Assembly: GCA_051294905.1 (NCBI GenBank)
Contig: CM119380.1
Coordinates: 14,632,001-14,696,000 of the forward strand
Reading direction: 5' to 3'
From: Botryllus schlosseri
Lineage: Eukaryota
DNA length: 64,000 nucleotides
Position 1 is the first letter of the stretch. Each line of letters opens with the position of its first letter. This document shows positions 43,309 to 62,548 of the stretch, one piece after another. Under the pieces are notes generated by a model. It searched no databases and had not been told where the DNA came from. It saw nothing but the letters and a program-made list of their open reading frames with translations. A program made the translations under genes and the position numbers.

Positions 43309-43489
43309 AGTAGTATATAACAGCACGTTCTCATGCGGACCAATTAAATCGCAGCATTTGATCACGTGACTACTTTTGAATTTCAAATCAAACAGAGAAA
43401 AGCGCGCGAAAGAGTTATATCAATAGTGCTTCAATAGGGACAATGGGTGACAATATATGTCAATAACGGGCGTGACCGTCATTGTATTG
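43309..43489 (+). repeat. Left TIR of the Polinton
   Basis: 180/181 identical to the reverse complement of 62368-62548; looser similarity continues about 35 bp further. Confidence 0.96.
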
Positions 43490-43658
43490 ACAATGATTGT
43501 GTCAGCTGATTGTATAATGGGTGTTAATGGGTGTGGCTTAGGAGAGCGAACCGTGACAGCATAATGGGGTGTGTGCTAGCGAACGTTACGGTATTGTGCA
43601 ATGGTTAATACCATAGACAAGTCCAAAGCTAGTGATATTACACCATACACAGCTTTGA

Positions 43659-43868
43659 TCACGTACCAAATTTGTAATTATATATTTTTTTAGCATCACT
43701 ACAAATCATTCTTATTCCTATATACAGTCCAATTATTCCTATACAGCCATCCCATCGCAAGCTCCATCCCAGTTCCTCTCCCAGTGCTTGTCCAAATGTT
43801 CGAAGTATATTTTCGCTCGTTCTGGTGTTACACCCTCCATTGTTCAGGATTTGCAGTCTTCTGCCCAT
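43659..43868 (-). CDS. Possible small membrane protein, 69 aa
   Basis: ATG-initiated with a hydrophobic stretch GCIGIIGLYIGIRMIC; no other support. Confidence 0.25.
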   Translation of the reverse strand: MGRRLQILNNGGCNTRTSENILRTFGQALGEELGWSLRWDGCIGIIGLYIGIRMICSDAKKIYNYKFGT

Positions 43869-44195
43869 CTCGCCTAGCGTTCGTTGCTGTTGTTTTGATT
43901 AACGCGTCAAAGTGGGTACTTAGACCCACTCCAATCACGTGACTACTTTTGAATTTCAAATCAAACAGAGAAAAGCGCACGAAAGAGTTGTGTGTCCGTT
44001 ATTGCACAATGGGTAATAACCTAGCGATATTGCACCATACATAGCTTTGATCACGTGACAAGTTTGCAATCATATATATGTTTATTCCGCGATGGTGTGA
44101 TCATCATTGTATTGACAATGATTGTAGAAGAAGTTTAGGGGACTATTTAAGTCACAAATTTGATGCTAAGCCATTCAATACGAAATTGAGCGACG

Positions 44196-44522
44196 ATGGG
44201 AAGAATAGTGATTAACGATGTCAAATTCGAATCTCCAACAAATATTACAATGGACCAAACTTCAAAGAGTATAATAGTAACGGGTGTAGCGACGATAAAA
44301 TTTGAGCAGCAGTTCATGATAAAACGCCGTGAAGGATATACGTGGGTGATCATACGTGGCGAAGACAACGAAAAAAAATCAATGAAGATTCATGAGGAAG
44401 ATGTCCGCATAAATGGAAAGTGTATTACTATCAAACAAGGAACCGCCGTGGAATTAAACAGCCTATTCATGAAAAATTGTTACAGATTAGAAATGAGCGA
44501 CGCATCTCATCTCATACATTAA
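44196..44522 (+). CDS. Hypothetical Polinton protein, 108 aa, beta-rich
   Basis: ATG in good context, TATA-like TATTTAAG about 50 nt upstream. Confidence 0.6.
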   Translation: MGRIVINDVKFESPTNITMDQTSKSIIVTGVATIKFEQQFMIKRREGYTWVIIRGEDNEKKSMKIHEEDVRINGKCITIKQGTAVELNSLFMKNCYRLEMSDASHLIH

Positions 44523-44686
44523 TATATTTTTTGTTGTAGATTTGAAATGCGCTACGCATGTCATTTCATACATTAATCATATCATTCATTATTCTGTAAC
44601 CTATTTCTATTTACATGTATAATTAGATTGAATTATAATTTATTTGAAAGCAAGTGCGACAGTTCGAATACTATCATTCGATAGAC

Positions 44687-45166
44687 ATGCGTGCTTTGAA
44701 GCGTTTGATATATGAACAAGCAAAATTTAAGCAGAATGCTTACGAAGGGATCCGAGCAGGACCATTCGATGAAAAGAATATGTATAGTTGGTGGGCAACG
44801 ATCCAAGGACCAAACGGAACGCCCTACGAAGGTGGTGTGTTCAGATTATCAATCGAATATTCTACCGAGTATCCATTCAAGCCTCCTAAAATGCGATTTG
44901 AAACACGGATATTCCATCCTAACGTAAGCTGTAAAGGTACCATATGTGTCGATATTTTACAGAAGGAATGGTCACCAGCGATGACAACGTCCACTCTACT
45001 GATATCAATACGTTCATTGCTCGCTTCACCAAACCCTTATGATCCGATGGATCAAGAGAGTGCGGAAATGTATTTAAAAAATAAGGAACGTTATTTCCAA
45101 CTAGCTACTCAATATACCCGTAGACATGCAATGGAAGATACGCAAGTCACCCAGCAAGAAAAATAG
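44687..45166 (+). CDS. E2 ubiquitin-conjugating enzyme (UBE2D-like), 159 aa
   Basis: GP.GTPYEGGVF, YPFKPPK, FHPNV, catalytic ICVDIL, WSPA motifs; intronless; AATAAA at about 45229. Confidence 0.95.
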   Translation: MRALKRLIYEQAKFKQNAYEGIRAGPFDEKNMYSWWATIQGPNGTPYEGGVFRLSIEYSTEYPFKPPKMRFETRIFHPNVSCKGTICVDILQKEWSPAMTTSTLLISIRSLLASPNPYDPMDQESAEMYLKNKERYFQLATQYTRRHAMEDTQVTQQEK

Positions 45167-45275
45167 TGTTGTTTTAATCCACCGCGAGTAGCGTGGAATT
45201 GCATTATACATTCCGTATTGTTCTTGTAATAAATAATAAAAATCAACGTCTGGTTGCGTTGTTATTCGTCTGAAT

Positions 45276-45346
45276 GGGGACTTAGCTCAATGGTAGAGTA
45301 TCTGTCTTGCAAATAGAAGATACGGGTTCAATTCCCGTAGTCTCCA
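45276..45346 (+). tRNA. tRNA-Ala (anticodon TGC), 71 nt
   Basis: GGGGACT TA GCTC AATGGTA GAGT A TCTGT CTTGCAA ATAGA AGAT ACGGG TTCAATT CCCGT AGTCTCC A: all four stems pair, G3:U70, A73, A/B boxes, TTTT at 45351-45354. Confidence 0.92.
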
Positions 45347-45430
45347 CGACTTTTCTATTGATGCTGTATCTGACTAGAACACGAATGAGGAGCCGTAGTT
45401 GTTTTGCGATTTTATTACAGACATATCAAA

Positions 45431-45772
45431 CTAATAACAAGCATCATAAAATCGCGCGTTGTGTAACGCTTCGAATACGATTATATTTTTTACAACGATC
45501 GCATTCCCTTTAAATTCTATAAGAATAGGACAGGTACGCGGTAAACAGTAATGTTTGTCTTTGCAGACAGTGATTGTCGGAGATTCAATCTTACCGTAGT
45601 GAGGAACATGCAGTTTCTTCACTACGATCTTATTGGTACGATACATTATTTCACATGAGAAAGGAATAGTGATAGATCTCACTTTCGGTAATACAATCGT
45701 TTTTTCATAATACCTACGATCTCCATTACTACTCAAGCGTAGGGGACCAATACAAATGCGAGCCATAGTCAT
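45431..45772 (-). CDS. Hypothetical Polinton protein, about 111-113 aa, beta-rich
   Basis: TATA-like sequence upstream (~45810), AATAAA just past the stop. Confidence 0.6.
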   Translation of the reverse strand: MTMARICIGPLRLSSNGDRRYYEKTIVLPKVRSITIPFSCEIMYRTNKIVVKKLHVPHYGKIESPTITVCKDKHYCLPRTCPILIEFKGNAIVVKNIIVFEALHNARFYDACY

Positions 45773-45857
45773 GATTTACGTTCACATTCTTCTCCACAGC
45801 AAAATAGCGTATATAATAAGAATTCCAGAAATAACAGCGCGGTTGCAACGATAGTTA

Positions 45858-46598
45858 TTATTTCGATTTCTTCCATTGAGATTTTATCCAACTGAAACTT
45901 CTTTTTCGAATGAGATGATCGTGTTCATCCAATTTGAAGCTTGATGATATCGAACACTTTTGTCTCTTATCTAGTTGTCGCAATTTACACATAAGATCGA
46001 AGAATTTGATTTCGTCGTTTTCACGTATGACGGTTCTGAAATTCTTTGCAAAAGCACTACCGTCTTCAAAACACCAACTGATTTGATCGTCACTAACTGC
46101 ACTTATGAGAACAGTTTTGGATTTTACGTCTCGTTTGCGTTTGAGTGCTTGCGAAGCAGCGTCTTCTCGTAAATGAAATTTCAAATCGGCAGAGTTACCA
46201 CTATAACACTGCGCAAACATGAGTAGGTTTTTTGTATCTTTACGAAAGCTTTTTAATAGCTCACACATATCATCATCGAGTAGATGCCTATCATAAAATA
46301 CAAATCCGGAATCGCGAGCTTCAGGATCATTTTCTTTTGTGTTATTTGGACATGAAAAGCCGTGACCGACGAAATATATGAAGTTTATCTTGGCGCTACT
46401 ATCGGCCATCGTTTGAAGCTCTCTGGAAAAATTTCCAAGAGTGGCTTGCTCTTCACGCAACACTTTGATATCTTCAGTCTTGAATTTGAATTTCTGTACT
46501 AAGATATCTGTCATAATCTGAATGTCTTGTAACGTTCCTTCATTTTCGACATGGTGCGGCTTTCCGCGATAACACATCGATACTATAAGCGCATTCAT
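45858..46598 (-). CDS. Metacaspase-like cysteine protease (peptidase C14 / caspase-hemoglobinase fold), 246 aa
   Basis: NALIVSMCY...GTLQDIQIM...F.F..EDIKVL...ATLGNF...FIYFVGHG (His) ... MFAQCYSG (Cys) ... VLISAVSDDQIS...GSAF follows metacaspase order; TATATAA about 35 nt upstream of ATG 46598. Confidence 0.85.
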   Translation of the reverse strand: MNALIVSMCYRGKPHHVENEGTLQDIQIMTDILVQKFKFKTEDIKVLREEQATLGNFSRELQTMADSSAKINFIYFVGHGFSCPNNTKENDPEARDSGFVFYDRHLLDDDMCELLKSFRKDTKNLLMFAQCYSGNSADLKFHLREDAASQALKRKRDVKSKTVLISAVSDDQISWCFEDGSAFAKNFRTVIRENDEIKFFDLMCKLRQLDKRQKCSISSSFKLDEHDHLIRKRSFSWIKSQWKKSK

Positions 46599-46662
46599 GA
46601 TGACACTGACTAGATCCCGAGCAATAACCACTTATATACTCCGATGAATACACACGAATTTA

Positions 46663-46980
46663 TTAAAAGCGATTTCTCAAAAATTCCCATAATTTTAGTT
46701 TACGAAAAACGACAAGTTCACCGCGGTTACGACGAATAATTCTATGCTTCGACAACACATCTATATACATACAATTTTTAGGAAAACGCACTGGTATCCA
46801 ATCAGACCCGCGGAAAATTGTAACTTCGTTATCATGCGGGTAAATGCGTATGTGAAACGGCTCGAAAGAAATTCTATGAATACGATTTGCATTCATGACA
46901 ATAATTTTTCCTTGGACTTTCATGTAGGCCTTCTCATCATCTCCAAAGTATTCTATGATGGTGAAACTAGTTGCTCCCAT
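46663..46980 (-). CDS. Hypothetical Polinton protein, 105 aa
   Basis: Tightly packed between protease and metacaspase, same strand. Confidence 0.55.
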   Translation of the reverse strand: MGATSFTIIEYFGDDEKAYMKVQGKIIVMNANRIHRISFEPFHIRIYPHDNEVTIFRGSDWIPVRFPKNCMYIDVLSKHRIIRRNRGELVVFRKLKLWEFLRNRF

Positions 46981-47414
46981 TTCAAGATTCTAACGAAGTC
47001 CACTACGATATCGTCGTTCTCTTTTCGATCATCACCGAAGTGATCCAAATACTGTAGTGTGCTCATACCAGTAGAGCGTTTGACGATATATGCAATTGCA
47101 TGAGCTCCACAAGCGTCTGACCTTTCATGCTGTAATGGTTTTATTGAGCTAGTATAATTTTCGGGATCAAGGAAACTCGCAATCTCAATCCTGAATGGAG
47201 TGATACCCAGACTATCGTGAAAATGGGTTTCATATTGATCAGCATATATGCAAACCCAGTGACTACCTTCCTTGTGACTTTCATCATAATTGATCACAAT
47301 TGAATAAGGAGGTTTTGGGCGCTGAGGGAGTTGATCAATAGGGAAATTCCCTAGATAGTGTTGTTTCGTAGCATGGTAACTATACAATATTTCATCTATT
47401 TCTTGTCCGTTCAT
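46953..47414 (-). CDS. Adenain-like maturation cysteine protease, 153 aa
   Basis: GSHWV (His), HDSLG (Asp), LQ...SDACG (Gln, Cys); start overlaps the capsid stop as ATGA. Confidence 0.93.
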   Translation of the reverse strand: MNGQEIDEILYSYHATKQHYLGNFPIDQLPQRPKPPYSIVINYDESHKEGSHWVCIYADQYETHFHDSLGITPFRIEIASFLDPENYTSSIKPLQHERSDACGAHAIAYIVKRSTGMSTLQYLDHFGDDRKENDDIVVDFVRILKWEQLVSPS

Positions 47415-48688
47415 ATCACGGTCACCGTGCGAGCTTGGCTTATTTCCAGTATTTTTTGAAATTCCATAAAGCACAGCAGTGTCGTTTCGCTCTCAACACC
47501 TGCCGCAGGAAAGGTGATTCGAAGACTGATCGTTCCACTTTTCTGCAGCTCGAAGCAGTCATCTAAATCGTCACCTCGCAAATTATATGCTAGAAGCGTG
47601 TATCCATTTGCGAACTCGGAAGGGGAAATCAAGCCTTTTTGTCGTTCGATGGCACCCATAGATTGAATGAGATTTAGGTAGGCCTCGGAATAATGATTGT
47701 TTTCAAAATCAAGTTCGTAGCCACCTTCCGGCATAAGGAAACCATTTACTTTCAATTCAACCCGATTCATTTTATTATGAATAAAATTATATGGGTTCTT
47801 ATCGAGTGCTCCTTGGAATGCCTCAGTTTTCACCATGGCTATAATCAAACGTGTCGGCAGGGTTCCCGAATACAGATTACCAATATCGATTTGAGTGGTG
47901 TTAGCCGCAAAAGTTCGAGTCAGCAGCTTCATGTCCATAAAGGGATACCTAGCCGGTGCGTCTACCATCAAGGCAGATTTTACATCTTCTGTTACCCGCA
48001 CTCCACATAGGTGCAATTCTTTTTTGATGATTTTGAAATTGCTGGTAGCGGCTCCAAACAGAAAGAAACTTTTCGGATTCAATGTCAATTCGAACTCTAA
48101 CGGAACCTCGTCCAAAATATAGCGGTCTTGCAAACACAACCCGTGATGTATTTTACCGCGAATTTCAACGACTTTGCTCCCGGCATACGGCAAACTTCTC
48201 GCCTTATGACCTTTGTTAACCGCATCATTGCCTAGGCCCGAATCATCCAATTGCTTCTCTGTGTCTTTGACCCATCCTTGTGTAAGAAGCGTTGTCTCTT
48301 GCACGTCGTGAGGTGTGAACAGATAGTGTAAGTAGGCCGAATAACATTGTAGCTTCACGTCTTGTTTCAGGGTATGGTTCCCGACTTTGATGTGAAGTTG
48401 AGAAATTAGAGAATCAAGAATGTTATTCACAACTCCAATGCTGTCCGTGGCAGCTAGATCCGCATCGCCTTTCAATAGTTTCAAGCGAAATAAAAAATAG
48501 GATTCGCTTAAATCAATAAAATCGTCACATCCTTCATAGCGGTAAATAATTACGCTTGCGTTGTCCGACACAGGCGGAATCTTAATGATCCGTTTCTTCT
48601 CCACGCTTGTTTGGGTAGGTGGGAGTTGAAAAAGATCCAAGCTAGGATGTACGCCTTCGGCAGATTTCGCGTGAATTAGCTCCGTCAT
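47411..48688 (-). CDS. Major capsid protein (double jelly roll), 425 aa
   Basis: Polinton-type start LDLFQLPPTQTS, P+LIIAMV...F.G....NP+NF.H, C-terminal GT+SL...F; position in the morphogenesis block. Confidence 0.9.
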   Translation of the reverse strand: MTELIHAKSAEGVHPSLDLFQLPPTQTSVEKKRIIKIPPVSDNASVIIYRYEGCDDFIDLSESYFLFRLKLLKGDADLAATDSIGVVNNILDSLISQLHIKVGNHTLKQDVKLQCYSAYLHYLFTPHDVQETTLLTQGWVKDTEKQLDDSGLGNDAVNKGHKARSLPYAGSKVVEIRGKIHHGLCLQDRYILDEVPLEFELTLNPKSFFLFGAATSNFKIIKKELHLCGVRVTEDVKSALMVDAPARYPFMDMKLLTRTFAANTTQIDIGNLYSGTLPTRLIIAMVKTEAFQGALDKNPYNFIHNKMNRVELKVNGFLMPEGGYELDFENNHYSEAYLNLIQSMGAIERQKGLISPSEFANGYTLLAYNLRGDDLDDCFELQKSGTISLRITFPAAGVESETTLLCFMEFQKILEISQARTVTVI

Positions 48689-48738
48689 CTTTCGCGAGTC
48701 TGCTAGCTAATGAAAAAATAAAGTAGGGAGAGTCCTAT

Positions 48739-49107
48739 TTAATCGAAAATGTCCCGACGGCGCTTTTTCCGTTTCGTGGTCTTTTTTCTAGGTGCCTTTC
48801 TCTTGCCTAGGAAGTTGTCAAGAGCTTTGCTAGCTGCTTGTTTACCTCTTATTTTGAAGCTTTCACCGACGTTTTGCCCACGCAATACGTCAGAAGCTAC
48901 TTCTGCTCCTGTATGGAGTAGCTGTTTGCCGAGAGCTTTCGCCCCTTTTGATATCAATGGTACAACACTTCGTCCCAAACTACGAAAGAGATTTCCTAAA
49001 CCGTGTCCTCTTTGCACTCGTCCTCGAAAATAGTTTATGCCATTACCACTTTGCACACGATAGTATTGTTGAAAGGCATCGCGATCACAACAGTAATGTG
49101 CTCTCAT
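48739..49107 (-). CDS. Conserved Polinton virion protein with QxGxG motifs, amphipathic helix and basic tail, about 122 aa
   Basis: QSGNG and QRGHG followed by LGNLFRSLGRSVVPLISKGAKALG; C-terminal RKKTTKRKKRRR. Confidence 0.75.
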   Translation of the reverse strand: MRAHYCCDRDAFQQYYRVQSGNGINYFRGRVQRGHGLGNLFRSLGRSVVPLISKGAKALGKQLLHTGAEVASDVLRGQNVGESFKIRGKQAASKALDNFLGKRKAPRKKTTKRKKRRRDIFD

Positions 49108-49834
49108 GATGACGTAAAGCAAGTGTGATATCAATCATGGACCCCTTCAGATTTATAGCCGTACCTTTATCGTCTTTGATACTAATCTGAATTCGACGAG
49201 CGTCTTCCGTAATCATAGGGAAAAAGTATATTTTTTCGAATATATGATGTTGATATTCATTGACACTACTCGTAATGGGGATGTTTCGTAATAGCGGAGC
49301 TTTCGTGTCCCCGACTGATTGCGGTCGAATGAGATCGGTATAAATTAATAAATTGGTGATAGGCGTAATGGAATCCCTCAGAGTGATCTCTGAAGTTAAA
49401 TAATTCCCTCCTAGCAGCTTTTTCTTCCTAAGCTTTCCATACACGAAAACCGGATTTCTGACTCTGGTTGGATTCTTCAGGAAATTAGGAAACGCACCCG
49501 ATTTGTAAGGTGGAATGACTAACATACCAGTAGAACTTCCTAGCTGGTTAATATATACTTGGTCCTGCGTGCGATTGATTCTATCAATCAAACTTTTGAA
49601 GTCATAATAATTACCCTTGGGGTAATAATAATGATTTTTACTTCCCACTTGAATCAGAGGCGATGTTTTCTCATCCTGAAATTGCCATAACAGAGCGTCG
49701 AAAGCAGGTAAAGTAGGTTGGAACTCGTTGCGAATCGAGAACTCCGCTAGGCCCAGTTCGTATTTTCCTGCAATCGGTCGTGCTAGCTCGAGAACAAAAT
49801 CTGATTCCAAACTGCTAATGTGAATGTATTTCAT
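49085..49834 (-). CDS. Minor capsid (penton-like) protein 2, 249 aa
   Basis: C-terminal LLIYTDLIRPQSVGDTKAPLLRNI...ISIKDDKG motif typical of Polinton pentons. Confidence 0.8.
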   Translation of the reverse strand: MKYIHISSLESDFVLELARPIAGKYELGLAEFSIRNEFQPTLPAFDALLWQFQDEKTSPLIQVGSKNHYYYPKGNYYDFKSLIDRINRTQDQVYINQLGSSTGMLVIPPYKSGAFPNFLKNPTRVRNPVFVYGKLRKKKLLGGNYLTSEITLRDSITPITNLLIYTDLIRPQSVGDTKAPLLRNIPITSSVNEYQHHIFEKIYFFPMITEDARRIQISIKDDKGTAINLKGSMIDITLALRHHESTLLL

Positions 49835-50661
49835 AGTGCGATACCGCGCTTTCGGAATTGAAGTACAGCGCTCGATGGAGCGCTTCGAAACGGAATTTCA
49901 CCCCCTTTGTGATCCAGCAAGGAAATTTTTACCCGTTCCAATCTATTTATACTTAGCGGAAGAAAGAAAGGTTTTACGTAATATTTTGAAAACACCTTCT
50001 TATCTCCTTCGACTTTTACAACTCGTAATAAACGCTGTAGTGAACCGCTAGACTCTTGGGGTTCAATGATGTCGCAATGAACGTATACGAAATCGATTTT
50101 CGACAAGGGTCGTACATCAAAATTGAGATGTATTGTCTTGTCAGTAAAAAAGTATGCGGATAGCTCTGCTCTATTCTTCGGCAATATGAAACGTAGGAGC
50201 GTAAGGGTAACTACCGCCAATTCTAGATGCTCAAGTGTCCCAGTATAATCGTACTCTCTGGTGTCGATTCGATATCGCGTATCCTCTCCCGGTCTTGCAC
50301 TAGCTGCAATGTTTTTGTGTGGAATCGAAACCGTCAGGCTATCACTTTCAGGAAAACACTTGACTTTCACATCGGGATTAATGCTCTCCAACGATTTAAA
50401 CATGTCATATACAGATTCATATTCACCAATTTTGAACTTCAATCTTCTTGTGACTTCACTGGGACCCATAATGTCGAAACCGTAGTAGCTATTTGTGATT
50501 GGGATCCGTTCGTTAAAATCGGTTGGGAAGCCAATCTCAGTCAACGCGACTTCGCTTCTTTCTACATTTCTGGGGGTGTCTAGTTCGTTGGTGTAAACCG
50601 CAGCTGTATTTTGTGGAAACCTGTCCATGGAGGCATTGGAAAATAACGTAATATAACTCAT
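49831..50661 (-). CDS. Minor capsid (penton) protein 1, 276 aa
   Basis: YITLFSNASMDRFPQNT...EVALTEIGFP start and VYVHCDIIEP...LLRVV...ISLLDHKG end. Confidence 0.85.
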   Translation of the reverse strand: MSYITLFSNASMDRFPQNTAAVYTNELDTPRNVERSEVALTEIGFPTDFNERIPITNSYYGFDIMGPSEVTRRLKFKIGEYESVYDMFKSLESINPDVKVKCFPESDSLTVSIPHKNIAASARPGEDTRYRIDTREYDYTGTLEHLELAVVTLTLLRFILPKNRAELSAYFFTDKTIHLNFDVRPLSKIDFVYVHCDIIEPQESSGSLQRLLRVVKVEGDKKVFSKYYVKPFFLPLSINRLERVKISLLDHKGGEIPFRSAPSSAVLQFRKRGIAL

Positions 50662-50870
50662 AGTTTGGGTATCTTTGGAGCCGGTAACATATATCCCACA
50701 CACGATGATAACAGCGACACCCAAAGCTCTTTGTTGTCTTGCACGACACTCAAATTATACAGCGAAAAACTCACGATGAGCAGTATAATTATAACTTGAG
50801 CAATGAATTGATAAAAGTTACGGTTCGACGATATCTTTTTGATCGACCCAGGTATTGAATTCCGGTCCAT
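50658..50870 (-). CDS. Small two-helix membrane protein, 70 aa
   Basis: FIAQVIIILLIVSFSLYNL and ELWVSLLSSCVGYMLPAP; stop overlaps the penton start (ATGA). Confidence 0.7.
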   Translation of the reverse strand: MDRNSIPGSIKKISSNRNFYQFIAQVIIILLIVSFSLYNLSVVQDNKELWVSLLSSCVGYMLPAPKIPKL

Positions 50871-51822
50871 AATTCAACCACTTCACTAAAAACTGACTGC
50901 GTTTACCACGCCGTCGTCTCTTTATAATCTTTTCGACTTGCCATTTTTGCGGTTCAGTAACGGGTTGAATTTCTTGTCTGTAAAATTGTCCGTCAATTAT
51001 TTCGTTATTGTAATCACGTAAGCGATACGTTGGCGGATCTCCTTTCATGGCTTTGACAATGTAAAATATCTCGGGTTGCCAGTTGGGTCGACTAGACTTC
51101 TCAAACAGATTGCGAATTTTCGAGATGCGTACAGGGGTCCCGACCGCTAAAGTGGGTAGTTTGGAGTCGCGAAATCCATACATTTTTTGCCAAATGCTTT
51201 CTTGATTATGTCTATTAACTTCACTAGGAGGGATCCCTAACGAGCGGTGTCTGGTGTGATTGTACGAATAGACCATATCATCTAGCACATCGATATAATT
51301 GCTGGTGTTATTTTTCGTGAAATAGCGGTAGAAGATTTGACGGAAACTACGGATAGCCCTTTCCGCAATCGAAGATTTCAATTCGCTTTTCGTGTAAAAG
51401 TACCGCACCTTGTTTTTTCTGAGAAAATTCTGAAAAGCTCGACTCGAGTATTCTGTACCTCTGTCTGTCTGTAGCACTAATGGAAGGCTCTCTTTGAAAA
51501 CTTTTTTGAAAGCAGATATCATGTTGTCACTCGATTTATTTTTAATCGGAATCATCCACACATACTTGGAGAAAACATCAATAATAAGAACGATATATCT
51601 AAATCCACGATTGTATTTTGAAATAGACTGTACGTCGATTAAATCGCTTTGAAACTGCGCTCCGATCCCTGACACAACAACTTGACGACGTTTAAATCTT
51701 TTTCGAATGGGAAAGTGATAGGTATAACTATCTTGTCCCTTCAACCACTCGCTGTCTTTCTGTAGGTAAGCACCCCTATAAGAATTGGGTTTTTTGGGAT
51801 CGAAGTAGTCTAGTTTGTCCAT
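50818..51822 (-). CDS. Retroviral-like (rve) integrase with C-terminal chromodomain, 334 aa
   Basis: QSDLIDV, LQTDRGTEY, SIAERAIR (DDE); WQVEKIIKRR...FLVKWLNYGPEFNTWV (chromo). Confidence 0.96.
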   Translation of the reverse strand: MDKLDYFDPKKPNSYRGAYLQKDSEWLKGQDSYTYHFPIRKRFKRRQVVVSGIGAQFQSDLIDVQSISKYNRGFRYIVLIIDVFSKYVWMIPIKNKSSDNMISAFKKVFKESLPLVLQTDRGTEYSSRAFQNFLRKNKVRYFYTKSELKSSIAERAIRSFRQIFYRYFTKNNTSNYIDVLDDMVYSYNHTRHRSLGIPPSEVNRHNQESIWQKMYGFRDSKLPTLAVGTPVRISKIRNLFEKSSRPNWQPEIFYIVKAMKGDPPTYRLRDYNNEIIDGQFYRQEIQPVTEPQKWQVEKIIKRRRRGKRSQFLVKWLNYGPEFNTWVDQKDIVEP

Positions 51823-52274
51823 AGCTTCCCAAAGTAGCGTTGATTGGGCTTTTGTTGACGTGGAGTATCGAGTTCTTTCCAGTTAAGCGGAGGTTTGAGG
51901 TCGACCTTTTTCTTTGCTTTTTTCTTGGGTTTTTTCTTCTTTGGAGTATCTCCCTCCTGTTTAGTAACGCTCCAATTAAACGCGTGCGGGGGCCCCGGCG
52001 TCGCGTTTGTGTCATCAGATGGTGGCGCGCGCGCTGCGTCTGCTTTAATGACGGGCGGCGACGCGTTTTTATCGTCAAGTGACGAAGCGTTTGCGAGCGC
52101 TTTTATCGTCGCGTCATTCTTTCTTAGGTTTCTCAAGACATTGATACCGTGTTTGTAAAGCGCTAGTTTTTGCACGCGAGTCAAATCCGAGTCTCTGATT
52201 TTGGCAATATGTTTGTCAAATTTCCTTTCGTATCCATCTTTTGTTAGTAGCGGTGGAAAATAGAGCTCACGCAT
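51810..52274 (-). CDS. Basic hypothetical Polinton protein, 154 aa
   Basis: Packed between core genes; Lys-rich tail ending PPLNWKEL. Confidence 0.65.
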   Translation of the reverse strand: MRELYFPPLLTKDGYERKFDKHIAKIRDSDLTRVQKLALYKHGINVLRNLRKNDATIKALANASSLDDKNASPPVIKADAARAPPSDDTNATPGPPHAFNWSVTKQEGDTPKKKKPKKKAKKKVDLKPPLNWKELDTPRQQKPNQRYFGKLWTN

Positions 52275-52680
52275 TTCTCGTCAGTCCGCCCAAGAGGCTT
52301 CCCAGTATCGGAATAGCGGCACTCAAAATGGCTAGGAACGGAATAACGTTAGATACAGTATTGAATCAAAGTTACACGTATTTACCCGAAAGAAAGCCAC
52401 CTCTTTGCAAAACTTTGCGCCTGCCTTTTTGAGTTTTGCAACACAGGACCTTCCGTATACTGGCTTTGTGTTTTTTCAATTTAGATTTTCTTGCGTTAGA
52501 AATAGGTACATCGCCCGCCACCAGGTTTCGAAGACACTCGCACACACTAGCGACAAATTCCTTATGCTTCAATAACTGAATACGTTCGGGGTTTTTAGCC
52601 CTCCGTAAAGTTTTCAATTTGGTAAGATGATCTTTTAAACGTTTTTTCAAAATGAGTCTTCGCGCGTCCTTAGCCATCAC
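52267..52680 (-). CDS. Conserved Polinton virion protein, spliced (exons 52680-52386, 52331-52267), 119 aa
   Basis: SVCECLRNLVAGDVP...LQRGGFL; GTAAAT donor, CTAAC branch and TTCCTAG acceptor give ...GGFLSAILSAAIPILGSLLGGLTRNA. Confidence 0.8.
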
Positions 52681-52712
52681 GAATGATGATTATCGTTCGA
52701 GCAGCGCGCTAT

Positions 52713-53333
52713 TTATTCCAAATACACAGTCATGCGTTCGTCCGGAAATATGTTGGTACGAAGTCGATACTTTTCCGGTGTCTCTTGGGTTAAATCAATG
52801 GCAATATATGAATAAGGTTCGCGAGTTGCTCTTTTGTATGCTTCTGTAAGCATAGTAGGATTGTCCGGGAACATTTGCCGTGAAAGGTAACGTATTTGTG
52901 AAACGTCACGTGGATTTTTAAACACCACAATATAGCTAGCGCTGAGAGTGACGTCACGAAAACCACCGCCTCGGTGAAATATGTTCTGGACTAATAGGAT
53001 TACTGAGACATTATTATGATGGGAATGACGTATGAATAGGTCCCTCGCTTGTTGTGCTTCCGTCATCATGTCGTCTAGTATTATCAGAGTGTGTCCATTA
53101 CCACCCTGCTGTAAATGTTCTAACTCGCCTAGACCTTGGTGGAATTTCACACCCTTCATTTTATCGTATAACGGCTGATAATTATTGTACAGCCAAATAA
53201 TCTTCCTTGGATAAGGCGCGATGATCTTCTTGGCATTTTGCACAAGGCGATAGGCAAAACATGTCTTACCGCAGCTCGAAGGTCCAGCTATGATCATCCT
53301 GAACGGAGAATTTAAGACACGTGCACGCTCCAT
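52713..53333 (-). CDS. A32/FtsK-like genome packaging ATPase, 206 aa
   Basis: Walker A GPSSCGKT, Walker B IILDDM, HSHHNNVSVILLVQN, FKNPRD. Confidence 0.95.
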   Translation of the reverse strand: MERARVLNSPFRMIIAGPSSCGKTCFAYRLVQNAKKIIAPYPRKIIWLYNNYQPLYDKMKGVKFHQGLGELEHLQQGGNGHTLIILDDMMTEAQQARDLFIRHSHHNNVSVILLVQNIFHRGGGFRDVTLSASYIVVFKNPRDVSQIRYLSRQMFPDNPTMLTEAYKRATREPYSYIAIDLTQETPEKYRLRTNIFPDERMTVYLE

Positions 53334-53360
53334 TTTTATTACAAAACAGACAACATTTTA

Positions 53361-56300
53361 TTACAAAGCAAGCGGTACAGTATGAATCCCATCACTCAAT
53401 ACAATTCTTTTATAGTAACCGTATGATAGAGCGGAACGATATTGATGATATGTATATATATCTCCCTGAAAGCAACGGAATCCGGAGTTATACCCTCCTG
53501 ATATAGAACGGTTTTGCAATACACCTTTGAAATCTTTGAAAGTTTTGCGGGCCGTTTTACTCAAACCTTTCGATGAATATTTATCTGTATCACCCGAGCA
53601 ATAGTAGGTTTTTGAATTGAGGCCAACAAACCCCCGTCCACTCCATTCTACTTTAAACAAACCCGGTGTTCGCTTAGAGTAATTATGAGCAGCGACACAG
53701 CACGGTTCATCGATTTTGAATGCGACCGGGTCCCTCTCGAAGTCTGTTTTATGCTTAACGCACGCCTGCTGAACCAACCACTGATCATGAACTTCAAAGA
53801 ACTCTTTACGCTTTGAAGGTATGATCAATGAGTAGATAGAATCAGCTGATATCGCTAAATAACAGCTGTCGGTGTCAAGTTCAAGATGAAATTGATCACA
53901 ATCGTTTATGTAGACGTGGAGGAAGTCATACATGAACGACAACATCCGTTGCTTACTGTGATTAAATATGAAGAAGCCTACGATGACGGGTTGATCAAGT
54001 TGAGTCGTATCGGGCCGTGAGGTTACTTCAATTAAGTCCGAATCAATTTCATCAGCGTCGATAAAATTCGGTTTTTTGATGAGCGCTTGAACTTCTTCGC
54101 AAGTCACATATTTGTGATTTTTATATTTGGCTGGATTTTGTATAGTGGTTCCGAAAGCACTATTTCCAAGATTCTTGAAGGTTAATGCCTGCATTTCAAG
54201 TGCATGGTCTCTAGGAATAACGTCACCTTTACGCCGTAGCGTAGTTACGCGATCTACGAAGTTGCGAAATAGTCTTTTAGGTTCATATTCCAAACATTGA
54301 TAAACACGTGTGACCACCATTCCGTGACGCAAGTACCAACTCAACAAGTCGGTAGTAACCAATTGCTTTTCGATGAAATAACTGGACGCGAGCGCTTTTT
54401 TTGGAAACTTGACTTTGTTTTCCCTTGCGTATTGAGCCATATGCGGACCGATATCACATTCATTAATTTCGATGTGCTTAAAGAAAGGCGGTAACTCTTC
54501 AAACTTAGATTTCAAATGATCTGGGCAGTGCGCGTCGCATTCTATCGCACCGAAAAAGCGATTGTTAACGACTCGATCGAGTATTTGTTCTTGCGATAGT
54601 AAATATTCTTTTGTCACATTCCTTTGTAAATGTGCAACGAGGCGCGCAATGTCTGGATCGCGCTTCATTGCTTTCCATTCACATTCGCGCACTCGAATGA
54701 CCTGATATCCTAGGCGTTCAAAATAGGCGGTGGTTTCTTCGGTTTTAATGCGTCGATTATGATTAATATTTTGATTATTAGATATACAAGGACACGAGTG
54801 CCACCAACATCCGTCCATGTTGAATATTAACTTCCGCTCCGCTGAGTATCCATCTACGCTAATTCTACGGGCTCCCAGTTTCACTTGCGGACCGTTCCAA
54901 GCGTGACGAATCGGAATACCGCGAACAATGCTTTGATAAGTTAACCACTCGAGTTCGATCATGGACGGATAAGTCTGTTTTCTATGAAATTTCTGTTTCA
55001 CTTCATCATACAGCCAACGGGTGACATATCCAGTTGGCATATTGAGATCAATGGCGTGCAAATATAATGCGTTGCTGTCATACCCTACTATAGATTTCAC
55101 GTCTTTGGCTGCGTCTCCATACTTCAAAATGCGAATTTTGGTCTCGTCTGCCATTGCATACCGGTTTGTAATTTGTGCCAATCCACCGATTAAGTTATTA
55201 GTTACAGTGTGATGGAGATCGGCATTGGCTTTATTGAATAAAGCGATTTCCCACCTTTCATCGAACATAAGTCGATTAGCTATACTCGGTAAGCTGACGT
55301 GATTTTTGAACATGTCAATCCCCAGTTTTTTATAAAAGTCGAAGTGGTTATTTACCGCGACGAGAAAGCCGACCACATCACATTCATTGTAGTATTTTAA
55401 AAAATCCCTCATTGTTTTCATATCGAGACGCTTCCAAGTATCGACGCATTCTTGGTATTGTTCAGCTGTAATATTATGCCCGCGAAGACTACTATAAAAG
55501 CTATCGTGTGGCGGTAGCGATGTTTCTTTCAATTTATCAATATGCGTCATATATTCGTATGGAAAGAAAAATTTATTGTTTACTCCATCACCGTACACTT
55601 TCAAATACGCATCCAGGCTATATCCCGGAGCGAGGAATAGAGATATATCTAGAAATTTCAATTTATTTGTGGAGATAGTGAGGTAACTGCTGTTTCGCTT
55701 CAATACAAAAAAGCCGCTCTCCTCTCGCAAAAGAGCAATCAAATATTTTTTACACAGATTTAAATCGTAGCGAGCCGAGTTGAATCCGATTACGGGTATT
55801 TGATCTAACCACGTTTCAAAGCGATGATACAACAACTCCAGGTACGATCGCGTTTTAATCGGATCAATCACTTTACGTTCTTCAATCAAGTCGCGAAGAG
55901 CGGTCAACTCGGTGTCATATATAGCACGCATTTGCGAAGACGCAATTTCTTGAATTTCATGAAGCTTATCGACCATTTCTTTAATTAGATCACGCGGGTT
56001 GCCATTGGAAATAAATGTAGTTGTTTCGTTCGTGACATTATCACACAGTGAGACCGAGAGCGGGACATGTTTACTGGTAAATTTTACTTTGGCTGTATCG
56101 GGCTTGAGATTTTCTTTTACTAAGAGACTCTCAAAGTCAAAGCAAATTCTGAATTTGTAAAAACGTTTTTCTTTACTAACAAATATACCTTCATTTTCCA
56201 AATCTTCAAACACCGTCGCTTTAGGACGATAAACACCAGAACCGTAGCGATACCTTTTCTCAGAATTACAATGATTTTTAATATGTCGTTTTAAACTACT

Positions 56301-57227
56301 TTTCAAGGTAAAGAATGTTTTACACGAATCACACATAAAAGTAGACGTATAATTCTCTATATTCAAAATTAAAGAACAGTGATTTTCGAGCATGTGAATA
56401 TGAATTGTGAGTCCAGACGCATTGGAAGTACGACGCAAGACCGTGGTTTGTTCACGTTTCTCGTAAAGCAATATTCTAACGTTAAAACACGCTTCCACTT
56501 TCGATAGTTGGTCGAGGGATATACCATTGGCAACTGAAATTCCGTAACGATTTTCAAATTGCGTAGTCAATTGAGAAACATGACTTTCGTCACGTTTTTT
56601 AATTAATCTAAATGAGACGCATCGAAACAGACAAAGATTATCTGTATATGGTACACCTTCACGATTACGAATAAAAGCACTGATATATCTACATTTGGAT
56701 AATCTTTCCATTTCTTCTGAGACAACGCCCCCGCTAAGTAAAGGTCTTTCCATTTCATACAGGAATAAAGTAATGTGTAGCACCTCCGAACAAACAAATT
56801 TTGTATCCGGTCTGACTCGATTCGCATAATCGTAACCGGCCGATAAATCAATTGCATTTCTAAACGAATCAAAATCTTCACGCGATATGATAGTTCTTGG
56901 GACATCGAGGACAGCTTGCGATGATTGGGGGTGAAAATACGTATATCGCTCAGACTCGCGATTATATAGTAGATACCCAAAGCCATAATTTATTTTAAAT
57001 TGTCTAAATCGTTGCGGGTATATACTTGCGATACGCGCGTGAATGTCTGCGGGGTCTCGTTCAATCATCCGAATATTGACTATATGTCGCACGCGATTTC
57101 TCGAAGTCCACGTTGAGTCAATGATCGAATCGTAGTGCTCTTCAATTACTTCGACGGCGGCATCTTCAAAGCCCAAGGATTCATCGACGATCCAATCTCG
57201 ATCCAAATATCGCCTGCGTAGAGTCAT
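53361..57227 (-). CDS. Protein-primed family B DNA polymerase (pPolB), 1288 aa
   Basis: Exo I FDFES, Exo II GFNSARYD, Exo III YNECDV, Pol YDSNALY, KNLGNSAFG, LDTDS; C2H2 finger and VSR-like insert. Confidence 0.97.
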   Translation of the reverse strand: MTLRRRYLDRDWIVDESLGFEDAAVEVIEEHYDSIIDSTWTSRNRVRHIVNIRMIERDPADIHARIASIYPQRFRQFKINYGFGYLLYNRESERYTYFHPQSSQAVLDVPRTIISREDFDSFRNAIDLSAGYDYANRVRPDTKFVCSEVLHITLFLYEMERPLLSGGVVSEEMERLSKCRYISAFIRNREGVPYTDNLCLFRCVSFRLIKKRDESHVSQLTTQFENRYGISVANGISLDQLSKVEACFNVRILLYEKREQTTVLRRTSNASGLTIHIHMLENHCSLILNIENYTSTFMCDSCKTFFTLKSSLKRHIKNHCNSEKRYRYGSGVYRPKATVFEDLENEGIFVSKEKRFYKFRICFDFESLLVKENLKPDTAKVKFTSKHVPLSVSLCDNVTNETTTFISNGNPRDLIKEMVDKLHEIQEIASSQMRAIYDTELTALRDLIEERKVIDPIKTRSYLELLYHRFETWLDQIPVIGFNSARYDLNLCKKYLIALLREESGFFVLKRNSSYLTISTNKLKFLDISLFLAPGYSLDAYLKVYGDGVNNKFFFPYEYMTHIDKLKETSLPPHDSFYSSLRGHNITAEQYQECVDTWKRLDMKTMRDFLKYYNECDVVGFLVAVNNHFDFYKKLGIDMFKNHVSLPSIANRLMFDERWEIALFNKANADLHHTVTNNLIGGLAQITNRYAMADETKIRILKYGDAAKDVKSIVGYDSNALYLHAIDLNMPTGYVTRWLYDEVKQKFHRKQTYPSMIELEWLTYQSIVRGIPIRHAWNGPQVKLGARRISVDGYSAERKLIFNMDGCWWHSCPCISNNQNINHNRRIKTEETTAYFERLGYQVIRVRECEWKAMKRDPDIARLVAHLQRNVTKEYLLSQEQILDRVVNNRFFGAIECDAHCPDHLKSKFEELPPFFKHIEINECDIGPHMAQYARENKVKFPKKALASSYFIEKQLVTTDLLSWYLRHGMVVTRVYQCLEYEPKRLFRNFVDRVTTLRRKGDVIPRDHALEMQALTFKNLGNSAFGTTIQNPAKYKNHKYVTCEEVQALIKKPNFIDADEIDSDLIEVTSRPDTTQLDQPVIVGFFIFNHSKQRMLSFMYDFLHVYINDCDQFHLELDTDSCYLAISADSIYSLIIPSKRKEFFEVHDQWLVQQACVKHKTDFERDPVAFKIDEPCCVAAHNYSKRTPGLFKVEWSGRGFVGLNSKTYYCSGDTDKYSSKGLSKTARKTFKDFKGVLQNRSISGGYNSGFRCFQGDIYTYHQYRSALSYGYYKRIVLSDGIHTVPLAL

Positions 57228-57409
57228 TTATGCTATCTGTAAAAACATAGAACATTAGAAATTGAGAAGCTTATTTCAATCACAGTTTTGCTTACCGTTT
57301 GCGCTTGTATGATACGGTATCCAGTCGTAAAGTCGTGTGTCAACAAAGTATTGAAAAAATATTACCTATATTTACTCTATATCTGTAAAACAAAGCACAA
57401 TTTCACTTA

Positions 57410-57820
57410 CTAGAAAACGAAATTATATCTCAAGCGCAATTTAGATTGGTTTAGACCGTACAGAAACATGAACTTAATTCTGTCCAATCTAGCAATCTCA
57501 GTATCACGAATATTCGAGTCTGTTTTATCGTCACACAACAGTTTTTCGATATCTTTGATCACGTTTTTTGCAATGACAAGAAAATTTTTTGTCCAGTCTT
57601 GTTCGAATCCTTCCATCGAAATAAGGCGGTTCCACATCGCTTGCATTTTCAAATGATCGTCCATCATGTGTTCGAAGTAAGAACCAATATCTTGACGAGG
57701 ACGCTTTCGTGAAGGTTCTTGTGGATCCAGTAGACTTTGATAGAAGGCCGACATATCGCTAATTTGTGTCATGTCTCTCTGAGTGGTGGATGCAGCTATA
57801 TCGGCTAAGTTATCATTCAT
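57410..57820 (-). CDS. Hypothetical Polinton protein, about 136 aa, possibly spliced
   Basis: Open frame preceded by a strong acceptor (TTTTGTTTGCAG at 57830); a GTAAGT donor overlaps its stop. Confidence 0.55.
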   Translation of the reverse strand: MNDNLADIAASTTQRDMTQISDMSAFYQSLLDPQEPSRKRPRQDIGSYFEHMMDDHLKMQAMWNRLISMEGFEQDWTKNFLVIAKNVIKDIEKLLCDDKTDSNIRDTEIARLDRIKFMFLYGLNQSKLRLRYNFVF

Positions 57821-57981
57821 AATGTTAAGCTGCAAACAAAATTCGAATTAGTGACAATCGTTCATGCAAAAAAATATATACATCAGCCAAGTTTTTCAGT
57901 CATAATGTCAAGGTGCAAACAAAATTCGAATTGGTAACAATCGTTCATGCAAATAACAATCGTACAAGCAAAACATATTAT

Positions 57982-59580
57982 TCAAAGACTATCATTATAA
58001 GCTGCATTTTTTCTGGTTCTGAAGCTAGATGCTCTAAGATACAGTTCTTCAGCCAAGGGATCATTCTCAACACAGCCATTAACTCCTTTAATACAAGTTT
58101 TAGTTCTCTCTATTAAATCGAACAGAACATCACGACGGGCATGTTTGTTGAAACTGACCAGAGAAGGTGAGTAAATACCCCTTCCAAATTTTACGATGAC
58201 CGTTTTAGCCCTGAACGATATAGGATGTTTGACAGTCATCAAGTCAGAGCCATTTTGTTTATCACAAAGCATGAAGCAGCAAGATGGATTAATAATCCCG
58301 TATTCACATTGCACTGCTGTACGATTTATAGTCAGAATTGTTTCCTGTAAAGCAGTATTTTCAAAGAAAAGCGTTCCGCAGTTCGGAAACACAGAAATAC
58401 ATTTTGTAGCATCATAATATTTGAAAGCTTTCAAATTTTCCAAACTCGACAGCAAATAATTTGCTGTTTCACTACCGAAAAGCATTTCGTGCAATACTTC
58501 CTTTCCAGAATGGCAATGCCCTTCCAGAAAGAAGTGTGGAGCAAGTAATTTTTCATGAGTCAAGCTTTCACCGACAGCTACTATCAGAGCGGCACGAAGA
58601 AAATTGAGACTCCGTTTCAACCCGCCATATTGTATTTCAACAATATTTTCTTCCAGATATCTATACATGACTGTTCCATCATGTATTTCTGTCATCTCTC
58701 TTAATCCAACTAGCCAACGCATGAATAAGCGATTCTTCTCATCATACTCCTGTTCTGCTTTGGTAGTGTCATGTATATGTCTTTGCATTGGCCTAAGGAC
58801 CGGAGGATCATGCTGGATCCAATATCTAGGAAAGATCCTTATTGACGATTGATCTGGCGATGATGGTATATTCGGCTTTGGTATAGAGCCAACATTAGAG
58901 TCGGAAAAACCACTTGAGATATGAGTGGAATCGGCGACAAGCTCACTGAAAGTAGGTTGCTCTGTAACTTGCGATGTGCTCTTCTCTATACGTCGCAGTA
59001 GGATTTGCTTCGCGATCTCATTGCTATCACGAGAAATTTCACCTAGCGGCTCGCTACTTTCGGCAATCGCCTCCGCACCAAGAGACAAATCCATTTCCGT
59101 GTCGGGATTGCCTACTGCTTGTCCCGAAGCTTGATGATTGACAGAAGGGGACGGATCGCTAGTCACGTTCTCAACGTCATAAACGGGTTGTTCACCTACT
59201 GGTGTTGATTGACTCAGAGGTATCAATTGATCCTTAAGTTGGGTCTCGTTGCTAATTAGCTCGATGTCATTAGCCTGTTGTTTTGATGGGGATGAATCAG
59301 TTTGGAATGCGGGACATATCTGACGTATGACAACGCGTTCGCGAAATTCTTCTTCGCTCAAAGATTTCAGAAGAACTTCTTTAGCAGATGGGATCTTCGT
59401 TATGGGTCTAAAGTATCGATCCATAGCGACGAGTTCCTCATCATCTTTATCCATTTGATCACATTTCATATGATTCGGAATTTCTACACTCAATGCATGG
59501 TCACTGCTTTCTCGGGTTGATTGGTTGCTTGGCAACTGCTGACTATCATCACCCATAATTACTTCAACTTGCAAAGACAT
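57982..59580 (-). CDS. 532-aa protein: disordered acidic N-half plus degenerate SF3-helicase-like C-half
   Basis: FFLEGHCHSGKE resembles a Walker A; downstream spacing matches SF3 motifs B, B' and C, but catalytic residues are altered. Confidence 0.55.
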   Translation of the reverse strand: MSLQVEVIMGDDSQQLPSNQSTRESSDHALSVEIPNHMKCDQMDKDDEELVAMDRYFRPITKIPSAKEVLLKSLSEEEFRERVVIRQICPAFQTDSSPSKQQANDIELISNETQLKDQLIPLSQSTPVGEQPVYDVENVTSDPSPSVNHQASGQAVGNPDTEMDLSLGAEAIAESSEPLGEISRDSNEIAKQILLRRIEKSTSQVTEQPTFSELVADSTHISSGFSDSNVGSIPKPNIPSSPDQSSIRIFPRYWIQHDPPVLRPMQRHIHDTTKAEQEYDEKNRLFMRWLVGLREMTEIHDGTVMYRYLEENIVEIQYGGLKRSLNFLRAALIVAVGESLTHEKLLAPHFFLEGHCHSGKEVLHEMLFGSETANYLLSSLENLKAFKYYDATKCISVFPNCGTLFFENTALQETILTINRTAVQCEYGIINPSCCFMLCDKQNGSDLMTVKHPISFRAKTVIVKFGRGIYSPSLVSFNKHARRDVLFDLIERTKTCIKGVNGCVENDPLAEELYLRASSFRTRKNAAYNDSL

Positions 59581-59944
59581 CTCGAATACTTTTCACTGAT
59601 TCGCTCAGATTTAGTGATAACTCATTTCACATTCGGCTAATCTTATACGAAAATGCTTCGCGCCAGAATCACATAAGAAAAATGTTCGCTCACTAACGGA
59701 CAAACATTAACCGTTAGGATTTGAAATTGTTGATAGATAGTAACAGCCCGTTCGAACAAAAGACATTCCCAACCGTCGTTTTCGCTTTGTTGGTAGAGCA
59801 AACAATGCATTGAGTGTTTGAAAAGCAATGAATAGTAGACGGTAAAACGAACCTCTATCAAATTTCTTAAAACAAAGTAAACTCAGATTGAACTCTAAAA
59901 TAAATGGAAGTGCGCGAAAGTAACGTTCGTTACAATTCATACCA

Positions 59945-60201
59945 ATACTTTCAACGAATTTTTTAACCAACAACATATTCAAACTCTGGAATGTCATAAA
60001 TTTAAATCAAAGTACGACCAATCATTTCAAAGTTGGAAATCTACCAATCAGAATACAGTATCGTGTTCTAGACCGATACTTTCAATGTATTTTTAACCAA
60101 CAACATATTCGAACTTTGGAATGTTGTAAATTTAAATCAAACGACCACCAAGCATTTCAAAGTTGAAAAATCTTCCAATCAGAATACAGCATCGCATTCT
60201 A
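59945..60201. promoter_or_regulatory. Tandem 126-bp duplication with CCAAT boxes in the divergent-promoter region
   Basis: 59945-60070 ~ 60076-60201; CCAATCAGAATACAG in both; TATAAAA at 60208-60214 ahead of the BIR gene. Confidence 0.6.
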
Positions 60202-60256
60202 CACAGCTATAAAAGCTCCCATTCTTATAAATATTTCAGTTCTTCAATATAACGAG

Positions 60257-60610
60257 ATGGTGTCTATTAAGCCGTTAGGTGCACATCAGGCAATGAAGAA
60301 TGAAGTCGGTGATATCGTTTATGAAATTTGTAATCGAAATGCGAAGCAGAACGAAGCTGTGTTTTTCAATATGAATTTTGAACGTAGATTACGTTCGTTC
60401 GAACCTTACAAAGAAAATTTCAACAGTAGTGCCTATCAATTAGCAGAATGTGGATATTTTCATCTCGGCTTCGAAAATTTAGCCAAATGCTATATGTGTG
60501 GAAAACTATTCGAAAATCTCTGTCATTGTGATAATGTATGGGTTGAGCATGAACAAGTGAATAGTCGTTGTGCTTTACTAAGTAAAAGAAATGACAAGAC
60601 TCATTCTTAA
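60257..60610 (+). CDS. Single-BIR inhibitor-of-apoptosis-like protein, 117 aa
   Basis: RRLRSF...LAECGY...exact Cx2Cx16Hx6C zinc motif (CYMC...EH...RC); no RING. Confidence 0.9.
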   Translation: MVSIKPLGAHQAMKNEVGDIVYEICNRNAKQNEAVFFNMNFERRLRSFEPYKENFNSSAYQLAECGYFHLGFENLAKCYMCGKLFENLCHCDNVWVEHEQVNSRCALLSKRNDKTHS

Positions 60611-60691
60611 TCTATTTTCTCGTGTGAGGATTCATGTTTTCACTGAATAATAATAACTATGTTGTGTTTTCTATATTAATTTAGAATCAAT

Positions 60692-61870: not shown

Positions 61871-62007
61871 TTCTCATGTCCCACTCACTCGTAGTGGTGT
61901 TTAAATAACTACTTTTGGCGCGTTAATTCCCAACGGTAAACTCATTGAGGCATTCAAATCTGGTAACGGTAAATCAAATGGACTGTTCTCATTTTTTTCT
62001 GGTCGAG

Positions 62008-62367: not shown

Positions 62368-62548
62368 CAATACAATGACGGTCACGCTCGTTATTGACAT
62401 ATATTGTCACCCATTGTCCCTATTGAAGCACTATTGATATAACTCTTTCGCGCGCTTTTCTCTGTTTGATTTGAAATTCAAAAGTAGTCACGTGATCAAA
62501 TGCTGCGATTTAATTGGTCCGCATGAGAACGTGCTGTTATATACTACT
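62368..62548 (-). repeat. Right TIR of the Polinton
   Basis: Reverse complement of 43309-43489 with one mismatch. Confidence 0.96.

Follow-up and report, generated by a model that had tools for sequence, protein, structure and literature searches.

The locus raises the question of whether a small basic protein ends at its first in-frame stop codon or is completed by a second exon that ORF calling does not see. In the window, i.e. the whole stretch of 64,000 nucleotides of Botryllus schlosseri contig CM119380.1 that was analysed, the gene lies on the minus strand with its ATG at 52677; if left unspliced, its ORF ends in ...QRGGFLSGKYV*. The original prediction placed an intron just behind this QRGG, and both the intron (52385-52332) and all its coordinates were borne out: GTAAAT begins at 52385, CTAAC occupies 52352-52348 and CCTAG ends at 52332. 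The predicted spliced product has 118 aa, and the intron interrupts its gene four codons past the cut site; the tail after QRGG would count 24 residues, of which exon 1 supplies 3, exon 2 supplies 20 and the junction codon one. The overall reading that we propose, with a probability of roughly 60%, is a once-gained, routinely spliced intron in a GasderminX core precursor, whose tail the protease of the element itself would cut off at QRGG. The parts of the gene are the following:

52682..52715, minus strand: predicted core promoter; TAAATA and, after 24-26 nt, CATT, which lies a few bases 5' of the ATG; shares bases with an AATAAA and with the stop codon of the ATPase gene
52386..52677, minus strand: exon 1 of the predicted GasderminX-family gene; 97 codons plus 1 nt; basic helical domain with 30 K/R versus 6 D/E
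52396..52407, minus strand: QRGG, predicted maturation-protease site, presumably cut after GG
52332..52385, minus strand: predicted intron; 54 nt, phase 1, GT-AG; CTAAC at 52352-52348; in-frame TAA at 52374-52372
52267..52331, minus strand: predicted exon 2; 2 nt plus 20 codons plus TGA; most of the pX-like amphipathic tail

The TAAATA...CATT layout was found in 5/5 intron-bearing lineages and, by the same pattern test, in 0/3 intronless loci. We take it for a TATA box and an initiator by their consensus, and it is probably the promoter of the GasderminX-family gene itself. Six TATA-like motifs with CATT/CAGT at similar spacing were noticed in all (52715, 48741, 46638, 44149, 61030 (-), 44073 (+)), several of them directly upstream of ORFs, in a count made without shuffle control. 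Downstream of exon 2, six ORFs with overlapping stops and starts follow one another at 52274-49085 on the minus strand; since no such promoter-like motif lies between them, the question arises how the downstream genes get translated.

To place the predicted tail among its relatives, homologs of exon 1 were collected. The single-sequence search returned 1 protein and a profile search was needed; the profile, built from exon 1 only (4 sequences), retrieved 917 proteins at E<=1e-3. Among the best 149 of these 917 homologs, 139 have a parseable GG motif (the 10/149 without one were left out), and in 135/139 it is followed by a tail of at least 15 aa, with a median of 23. Nearly all these homologs thus continue past xGG, typically as F-L-x-x-L-L-x-P, and do not end at the unspliced stop, which agrees with the original prediction. 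Indeed, the best match of the exon-1 profile has a 24-aa tail that aligns without gaps with the predicted spliced tail. At the DNA level, a contiguous gene was observed at 7/12 other loci of this genome, 5/12 being broken by a stop or frameshift (loci L065-L069 of intronless families) and 0/12 having an intron. Metagenome contigs provided 3 loci, of which one is a real intronless homolog (L074) and the other two are 17-residue matches, while 0/100 candidate stretches from viral contigs were confirmed as homologs. DNA-level contiguity was seen for the 7 own-genome loci and the one metagenome contig, most other homologs being known as proteins. Intronless families are at least as numerous in the same genome, with 131/150 scored matches at other places, 12 of them translated. 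The intronless relatives encode the tail directly; on our reading, the intron does not create the peptide. In a tree of the N-domain, the copies with the intron cluster together (SH-aLRT 86), and their closest neighbours are two intronless proteins in sister position (92). This tree was made by a quick method from 83 rows and 89 columns, the intron clade being unstarred; it omitted L026 and 53/122 members of the homolog alignment, from which 27/149 sequences had been left out by eye as truncated, frameshifted or long. A single intron gain appears to be the simplest reading of these relationships.

The most direct evidence on the nature of the insert comes from its copies. Searching the own genome at the DNA level yielded 27 matches, which fall into three groups; a further group of 46, with at least 72% identity to the third, came from a protein search, and 16 of these 46 were examined. 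The intron occupies the same position in 42/43 copies examined, from five diverged lineages; the exception, L090, is without exon 2. Among the 42 copies, GT is present in 41/42 (one has AT), a TAG acceptor in 42/42 and CTAA within the last 30 nt in 42/42, and the lengths are 51 nt (6 copies), 52 (3), 53 (1), 54 (31) and 67 (1). Since 5/42 of these lengths are not multiples of three, stop read-through is ruled out as a general mechanism. Two damaged copies were also observed, L017 without the GT donor and L013 with a 13-nt duplication within the intron.

The two sides of the acceptor evolve in distinct ways. Between members of three family pairs, the intron interior is 29, 18 and 38% identical, with no codon-position pattern. 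Over the first 14 codons of exon 2, synonymous to non-synonymous codons in three family pairs are 9:1, 10:2 and 9:1, and differences at codon positions 1/2/3 amount to 1/0/10, 4/0/11 and 3/0/8. By these substitution patterns, exon 2 is under purifying selection and the intron interior is scrambled. The tails that unspliced read-through would add are 3-12 aa long and vary between lineages, only the first residue or two being common. Furthermore, a profile of 131 homolog tails (the first 3 residues of each dropped, and 8/139 tails outside 15-35 aa left out) ranks exon 2 first of the 3617 six-frame segments of the window, at E 1.2e-4, the next one reaching 0.95.

We also considered that the insert might be no intron at all, being a neutral insertion or a stop codon that is read through, with the downstream frame a relic. 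No spliced read was observed and the window's own insert, with 54 nt, is divisible by three, as this explanation would have it, but the GT, branch and AG motifs persist as the interior diverges, 5/42 lengths are out of frame and exon 2 is under apparent purifying selection; we rejected it as hardly credible. As for transcripts, the junction 52386/52331 is absent from three contig sets whose RNA nature is guessed, which may be DNA and whose contigs drop rare variants; two of them span the intron sequence and one holds its 3' part, all unspliced. Five raw RNA runs had zero reads on the gene and hence gave no test of splicing. Collectively, the copies indicate that the insert is very likely a spliceosomal (U2-type) intron, spliced by the host.

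Seven measured introns of host chaperonin genes are 57-74 nt long, so that this intron size class is used in the host, and the 54-nt intron of the element lies at or below the short end of the measured host introns. Beside the intron-rich chaperonin paralogs, four full-length chaperonin (PF00118) matches without introns were noticed on large contigs, at C7:10230688, C9:19924282, C9:21391512 and C6:21422887. At the donor, G at +5 occurs in 0/42 copies (five related lineages) versus 6/8 host short introns (one read by eye). Since the +5 position is non-consensus and the intron is at the short end of the host range, splicing may be inefficient. The intron of the GasderminX-family gene is the only one seen among the core genes of the element. 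A host-wide intron-inserting element is an unlikely source, because the other core genes align almost gap-free between three intron-bearing lineages; other Polinton families in the same genome are without the intron.

These features could suggest a regulated switch, in which retention in silent tissues would leave a tail-less basic DNA-binding protein and splicing in a particle-making phase would give the full precursor. The non-consensus donor (+5 A) recurs in all five lineages despite the scrambled interior, the intron is the sole one seen in core genes and sits right behind the cut site, and the three contig sets are unspliced. There is also a precedent in the P-element intron IVS3, as described in the text of PMC7776569: there, too, a mobile element depends for its full product on the host removing an intron that contains an in-frame stop, but its regulation has been experimentally shown and controls a transposase, whereas the Botryllus gene encodes a predicted virion protein. 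On the other hand, the branch motif is strong in 42/42 copies, the read-through tails are unconserved, +5 A may be simple inheritance in an AT-rich intron and the unspliced contigs may be DNA. Moreover, since intronless families are at least as numerous in the same genome, no switch is needed. We consider such regulation improbable. Its strongest form, namely that one Polinton clade uses a deliberately weak intron as a latency switch on an entry peptide, in P-element style and in a virion protein of a DNA virus that integrates, seems just as doubtful; if true, the intron would be a direct RNA marker of when Mavericks form particles. Constitutive splicing is instead the probable course: the host would remove the 54-nt intron routinely, yielding the predicted 118-aa virion core precursor, and the intron would persist because lost splicing would remove an essential piece, the tail.

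The gene sits in a 19.2-kb endogenous Polinton/Maverick of adintovirus type. The arms of its terminal inverted repeats are 181 nt each and 99% complementary, and AATTTG flanks both. Its features, besides the gene itself, are:

43309..43489: left terminal inverted repeat; starts AGTAGT, with the 6-bp target duplication AATTTG just before it, at 43303-43308
44687-45166 (plus strand), 46598-45858 (minus), 60257-60610 (plus) and 62271-62008 (minus): intronless accessory ORFs inside the terminal inverted repeats
46953..47414, minus strand: cysteine protease of adenain/pS273R type; weak ASFV pS273R match, E 0.024; His52, Asp67, Gln95, Cys102
47411..48688, minus strand: probable double-jelly-roll major capsid protein; weak Pfam PF21738 match, E 0.03, plus gene order
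48739..49107, minus strand: Cupiennin-like ORF; an amphipathic helix and a basic tail follow its two QxGxG sites; named from the gene order in PMC8502044, with no search match
50818..51822, minus strand: rve integrase with chromodomain; Pfam PF00665 and PF00385, above cut-off
51810..52274, minus strand: 154-aa ORF; its ATG (52274) overlaps the exon-2 stop (ATGCGTGA), an overlap kept in most related copies
52713..53333, minus strand: A32-like packaging ATPase; Pfam PF04665, E 2.5e-10, above cut-off
53361..57227, minus strand: probable protein-primed DNA polymerase B, 1288 aa; polymerase motifs plus gene order
62368..62548: right terminal inverted repeat; the same 6-bp duplication AATTTG just after it, at 62549-62554

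The 1288-aa ORF (53361..57227), for which no PolB match was found in Pfam or PDB, is presumably pPolB, as we judge from polymerase motifs plus its position; a weak C2H2 zinc-finger match was noticed at its residues 297-319 (about 56340-56270, minus strand). LINE-like pieces flank the element at 42139-43029, 62537-63199 and 63423-63827 (minus strand), which we take, by likeness, for ORFs of a LINE-type reverse transcriptase/endonuclease; likewise, we assume a hAT-type transposase in the 660-aa ORF at 39888-41870 (minus strand). Two adjacent minus-strand ORFs, 50661-49831 and 49834-49085 (276 and 249 aa), gave no family match; they are probably paralogs, since they have a C-terminal region in common (24-27% identity cross-family). 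The accessory genes, all intronless, encode a ubiquitin-conjugating E2, a caspase-family peptidase C14, a BIR domain and a death domain; each was matched in at least one sister lineage, and the set looks like a cell-death/ubiquitin toolkit. The protease frame stays open 5' of its ATG (47492-47414, minus strand), beneath the end of the capsid gene, and this extension aligns in three other families; it is comparable to the capsid-protease frameshift fusion suggested in the text of 10.1101/2024.03.25.586562. With this gene content, the element at 43309-62548 is a Polinton/Maverick whose virion module is the one named Beta in the text of PMC8502044 (Cupiennin plus GasderminX).

The family of the interrupted gene was approached through structure. 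For the AlphaFold model of its nearest intronless homolog, P0002 (mean pLDDT 88; exon-1 profile E 1.4e-17), the sole BFVD match of Foldseek at E<=0.001 is GasderminX of the Terrapene box turtle adintovirus (A0A5H3CT60), with E 3.4e-5, TM 0.68/0.73 and 30% identity. By this modelled fold, the gene belongs to the adintovirus GasderminX family. The GasderminX described by Starrett et al. in the text of PMC8502044 has the same fold, size, pX-like C-terminal tail and Cupiennin-like/protease/ATPase/integrase company, the difference being that the Botryllus tail is split by an intron. As to gasdermins themselves, a comparison with the gasdermin C-terminal domain fold gave a best Z of 6.3 for a helical model, within the background range, and no gasdermin entry stood among the 50 best rows of a wide fold search, though the fold itself may still apply. 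Sequence searches of PDB, whether with the two alignments or with the Cupiennin-like ORF, returned no significant match, and all ESM Atlas matches for exon 1 were under 0.9. GasderminX-type proteins have been proposed as virion core proteins (PMC8502044 and bioRxiv 10.1101/341131), and adomavirus LO6 was found in virions, apparently cleaved, according to the text of the latter. In the present precursor, the basic N-domain is likely to bind the packaged DNA.

The tail points to a particular adenovirus counterpart. Adeno_PX (PF05829) is the leading Pfam family among the 122 homologs, matching 42/122 at E<=10 (best 1.6e-4) and within the tail, every other family appearing in at most 5 homologs. 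Its curated cut-off of 25 bits was unreached, the best of 18 proteins scanned singly giving 22 bits, and exon 2 of the window alone (20 aa) had no Adeno_PX match. It seems, from these sequence matches, that the tail works like a counterpart of adenovirus protein X (pX), in likeness and below family membership. The precursor of pX (mu) has a similar plan, with a basic DNA-binding part, a Gly-Gly protease site and a conserved hydrophobic C-terminal peptide, but it is ~80 aa long, is cut twice and has an Arg-rich peptide in its middle (text of PMC7998265 and PMC8156859), whereas the Botryllus protein has a 94-aa helical domain and one visible site with Gln at P4. Homology with protein VI, the analogy proposed in the original prediction, was not supported: the 25 families listed for the homologs include no pVI family, and Adeno_PX leads instead. 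Like the tail, pVI exposes an amphipathic helix upon a protease cut (text of PMC8156859), but this helix lies at the N-terminus and remains attached to a long protein, whereas the Botryllus tail is C-terminal. We infer that the Cupiennin-like ORF (49107-48739) would be a better pVI analogue than the tail.

Cleavage behind QRGG had been attributed to an adenain-type enzyme. The conserved Gly-Gly stood, as did a protease ORF with His/Asp/Gln/Cys; the adenain specificity did not. Across the 139 homologs, Q occupies P4 in 135, G occupies P2 in 139 and G occupies P1 in 134, while the adenain consensus in the text of PMC7998265 is (M/L)XGG-X, with Met/Leu at P4. Gln at P4, here and in 135/139 homologs, does not fit this consensus, so that cleavage would need a specificity other than adenain's. 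The Cupiennin-like ORF has two QxGxG sites, both also found in an intronless family, and among 16 ORFs scanned, Q-x-G-G/Q-x-G-x-G is otherwise confined to the ATPase and a single accessory ORF. We infer that the Polinton protease would read Q-x-G-G and Q-x-G-x-G, that the ORF at 46953..47414 would be the processing enzyme of the element and that the Cupiennin-like ORF is a likely second substrate. Cleavage after QxGG during particle maturation is quite probable; in the model of the nearest intronless homolog, a single helix (86-118) runs across the GG site. The protease cut would free the 24-residue amphipathic tail.

What could this peptide do? Over the first 18 residues of exon 2, the hydrophobic moment is 0.48 with a peak at 100 degrees, a level reached by 0.44% of 5000 shuffles. 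The homologs agree: 127 tails show a 90-100 degree periodicity and have a median charge of +1, and 98% of them contain a proline somewhere in positions 3-12. The 24-aa amphipathic peptide first predicted from the window is thus borne out by the exon layout, the homolog tails and the hydrophobic moment. Its pattern fits a membrane-inserting helix, and could also fit a hydrophobic docking peptide. The second option corresponds to an assembly tether: with the same gene structure and cleavage, the capsid would hold the DNA-binding core protein by its tail, docked in a hydrophobic pocket, the maturation cut would free the core, and membrane lysis would be left to the Cupiennin-like protein. The Botryllus tail is indeed very hydrophobic, with a net charge of about +1, and the Cupiennin-like helix after QRGH exceeds it in both moment (0.56) and charge (+2). 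Furthermore, cleaved adenovirus pVI and pVII peptides occupy the hexon cavity (text of PMC8156859), reviews give pX a DNA-condensing role and, in the text available, no lytic one (PMC7998265, PMC8156859), and the C-terminal piece of adenovirus pX is linked to E2 protein accumulation, with no membrane role given there (PMC7998265). Against the tether speak the clear 90-100 degree periodicity of the 127 homolog tails and two points in the text of PMC8502044, namely that alpha adintoviruses carry the same pX-like tail joined to a phospholipase A2 domain and that a likeness to melittin is reported. We regard the tether as rather unlikely. That the freed, Pro-kinked helix and the Cupiennin-like helix jointly act on the endosomal membrane during entry remains our tentative preference, at slightly below even odds.

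Part of this picture is in print. The prediction of a hidden, new peptide has to be revised, since the pX-like C-terminus of GasderminX, its melittin likeness and its proposed membrane activity are already in the text of PMC8502044; the surprise is limited because the peptide and the membrane-active idea are published. The tail and its proposed membrane activity are therefore described, and the intron appears to be undescribed. The main text of PMC8502044 and the covered part of its supplement do not mention splicing, the sole "intron" of the main text concerning another virus. Similarly, the available text of 10.1101/2024.03.25.586562, PMC12517501, 10.1101/2025.02.07.637071, PMC10748475 and PMC11296320 has nothing on a GasderminX intron, and no description was found in the literature so covered, although Repbase/GenBank annotations or supplements could hold a spliced version. 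For Mavericks of vertebrates and nematodes, core genes without introns have been described, introns being restricted to cargo of host origin (text of PMC8097293; 10.1101/2022.07.12.499685), in line with the original 2006 statement of "no introns" in Polintons as relayed by PMC8097293. The Botryllus element has the same terminal inverted repeats, 6-bp target duplication and core gene set as these Mavericks, but differs from them by a conserved intron in a core gene. Introner-derived introns are known from dinoflagellate Polinton-like elements, according to the text of PMC11957031.

For this genome, the finding provides a corrected annotation for 72 matches or more (26 + 46), in which ORF calling cuts off the conserved tail, just as it had been predicted that six-frame annotation would miss it. 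For the family, the Q-x-G-G/Q-x-G-x-G pattern gives a concrete predicted specificity for the Polinton protease. An animal Polinton core virion gene can, on the present evidence, carry a conserved intron, although such genes have been described as intronless. Finally, purifying selection on exon 2 in five lineages would be indirect evidence both of expression through the host nucleus and of a need for the tail, and it bears on the question of whether Mavericks make particles.
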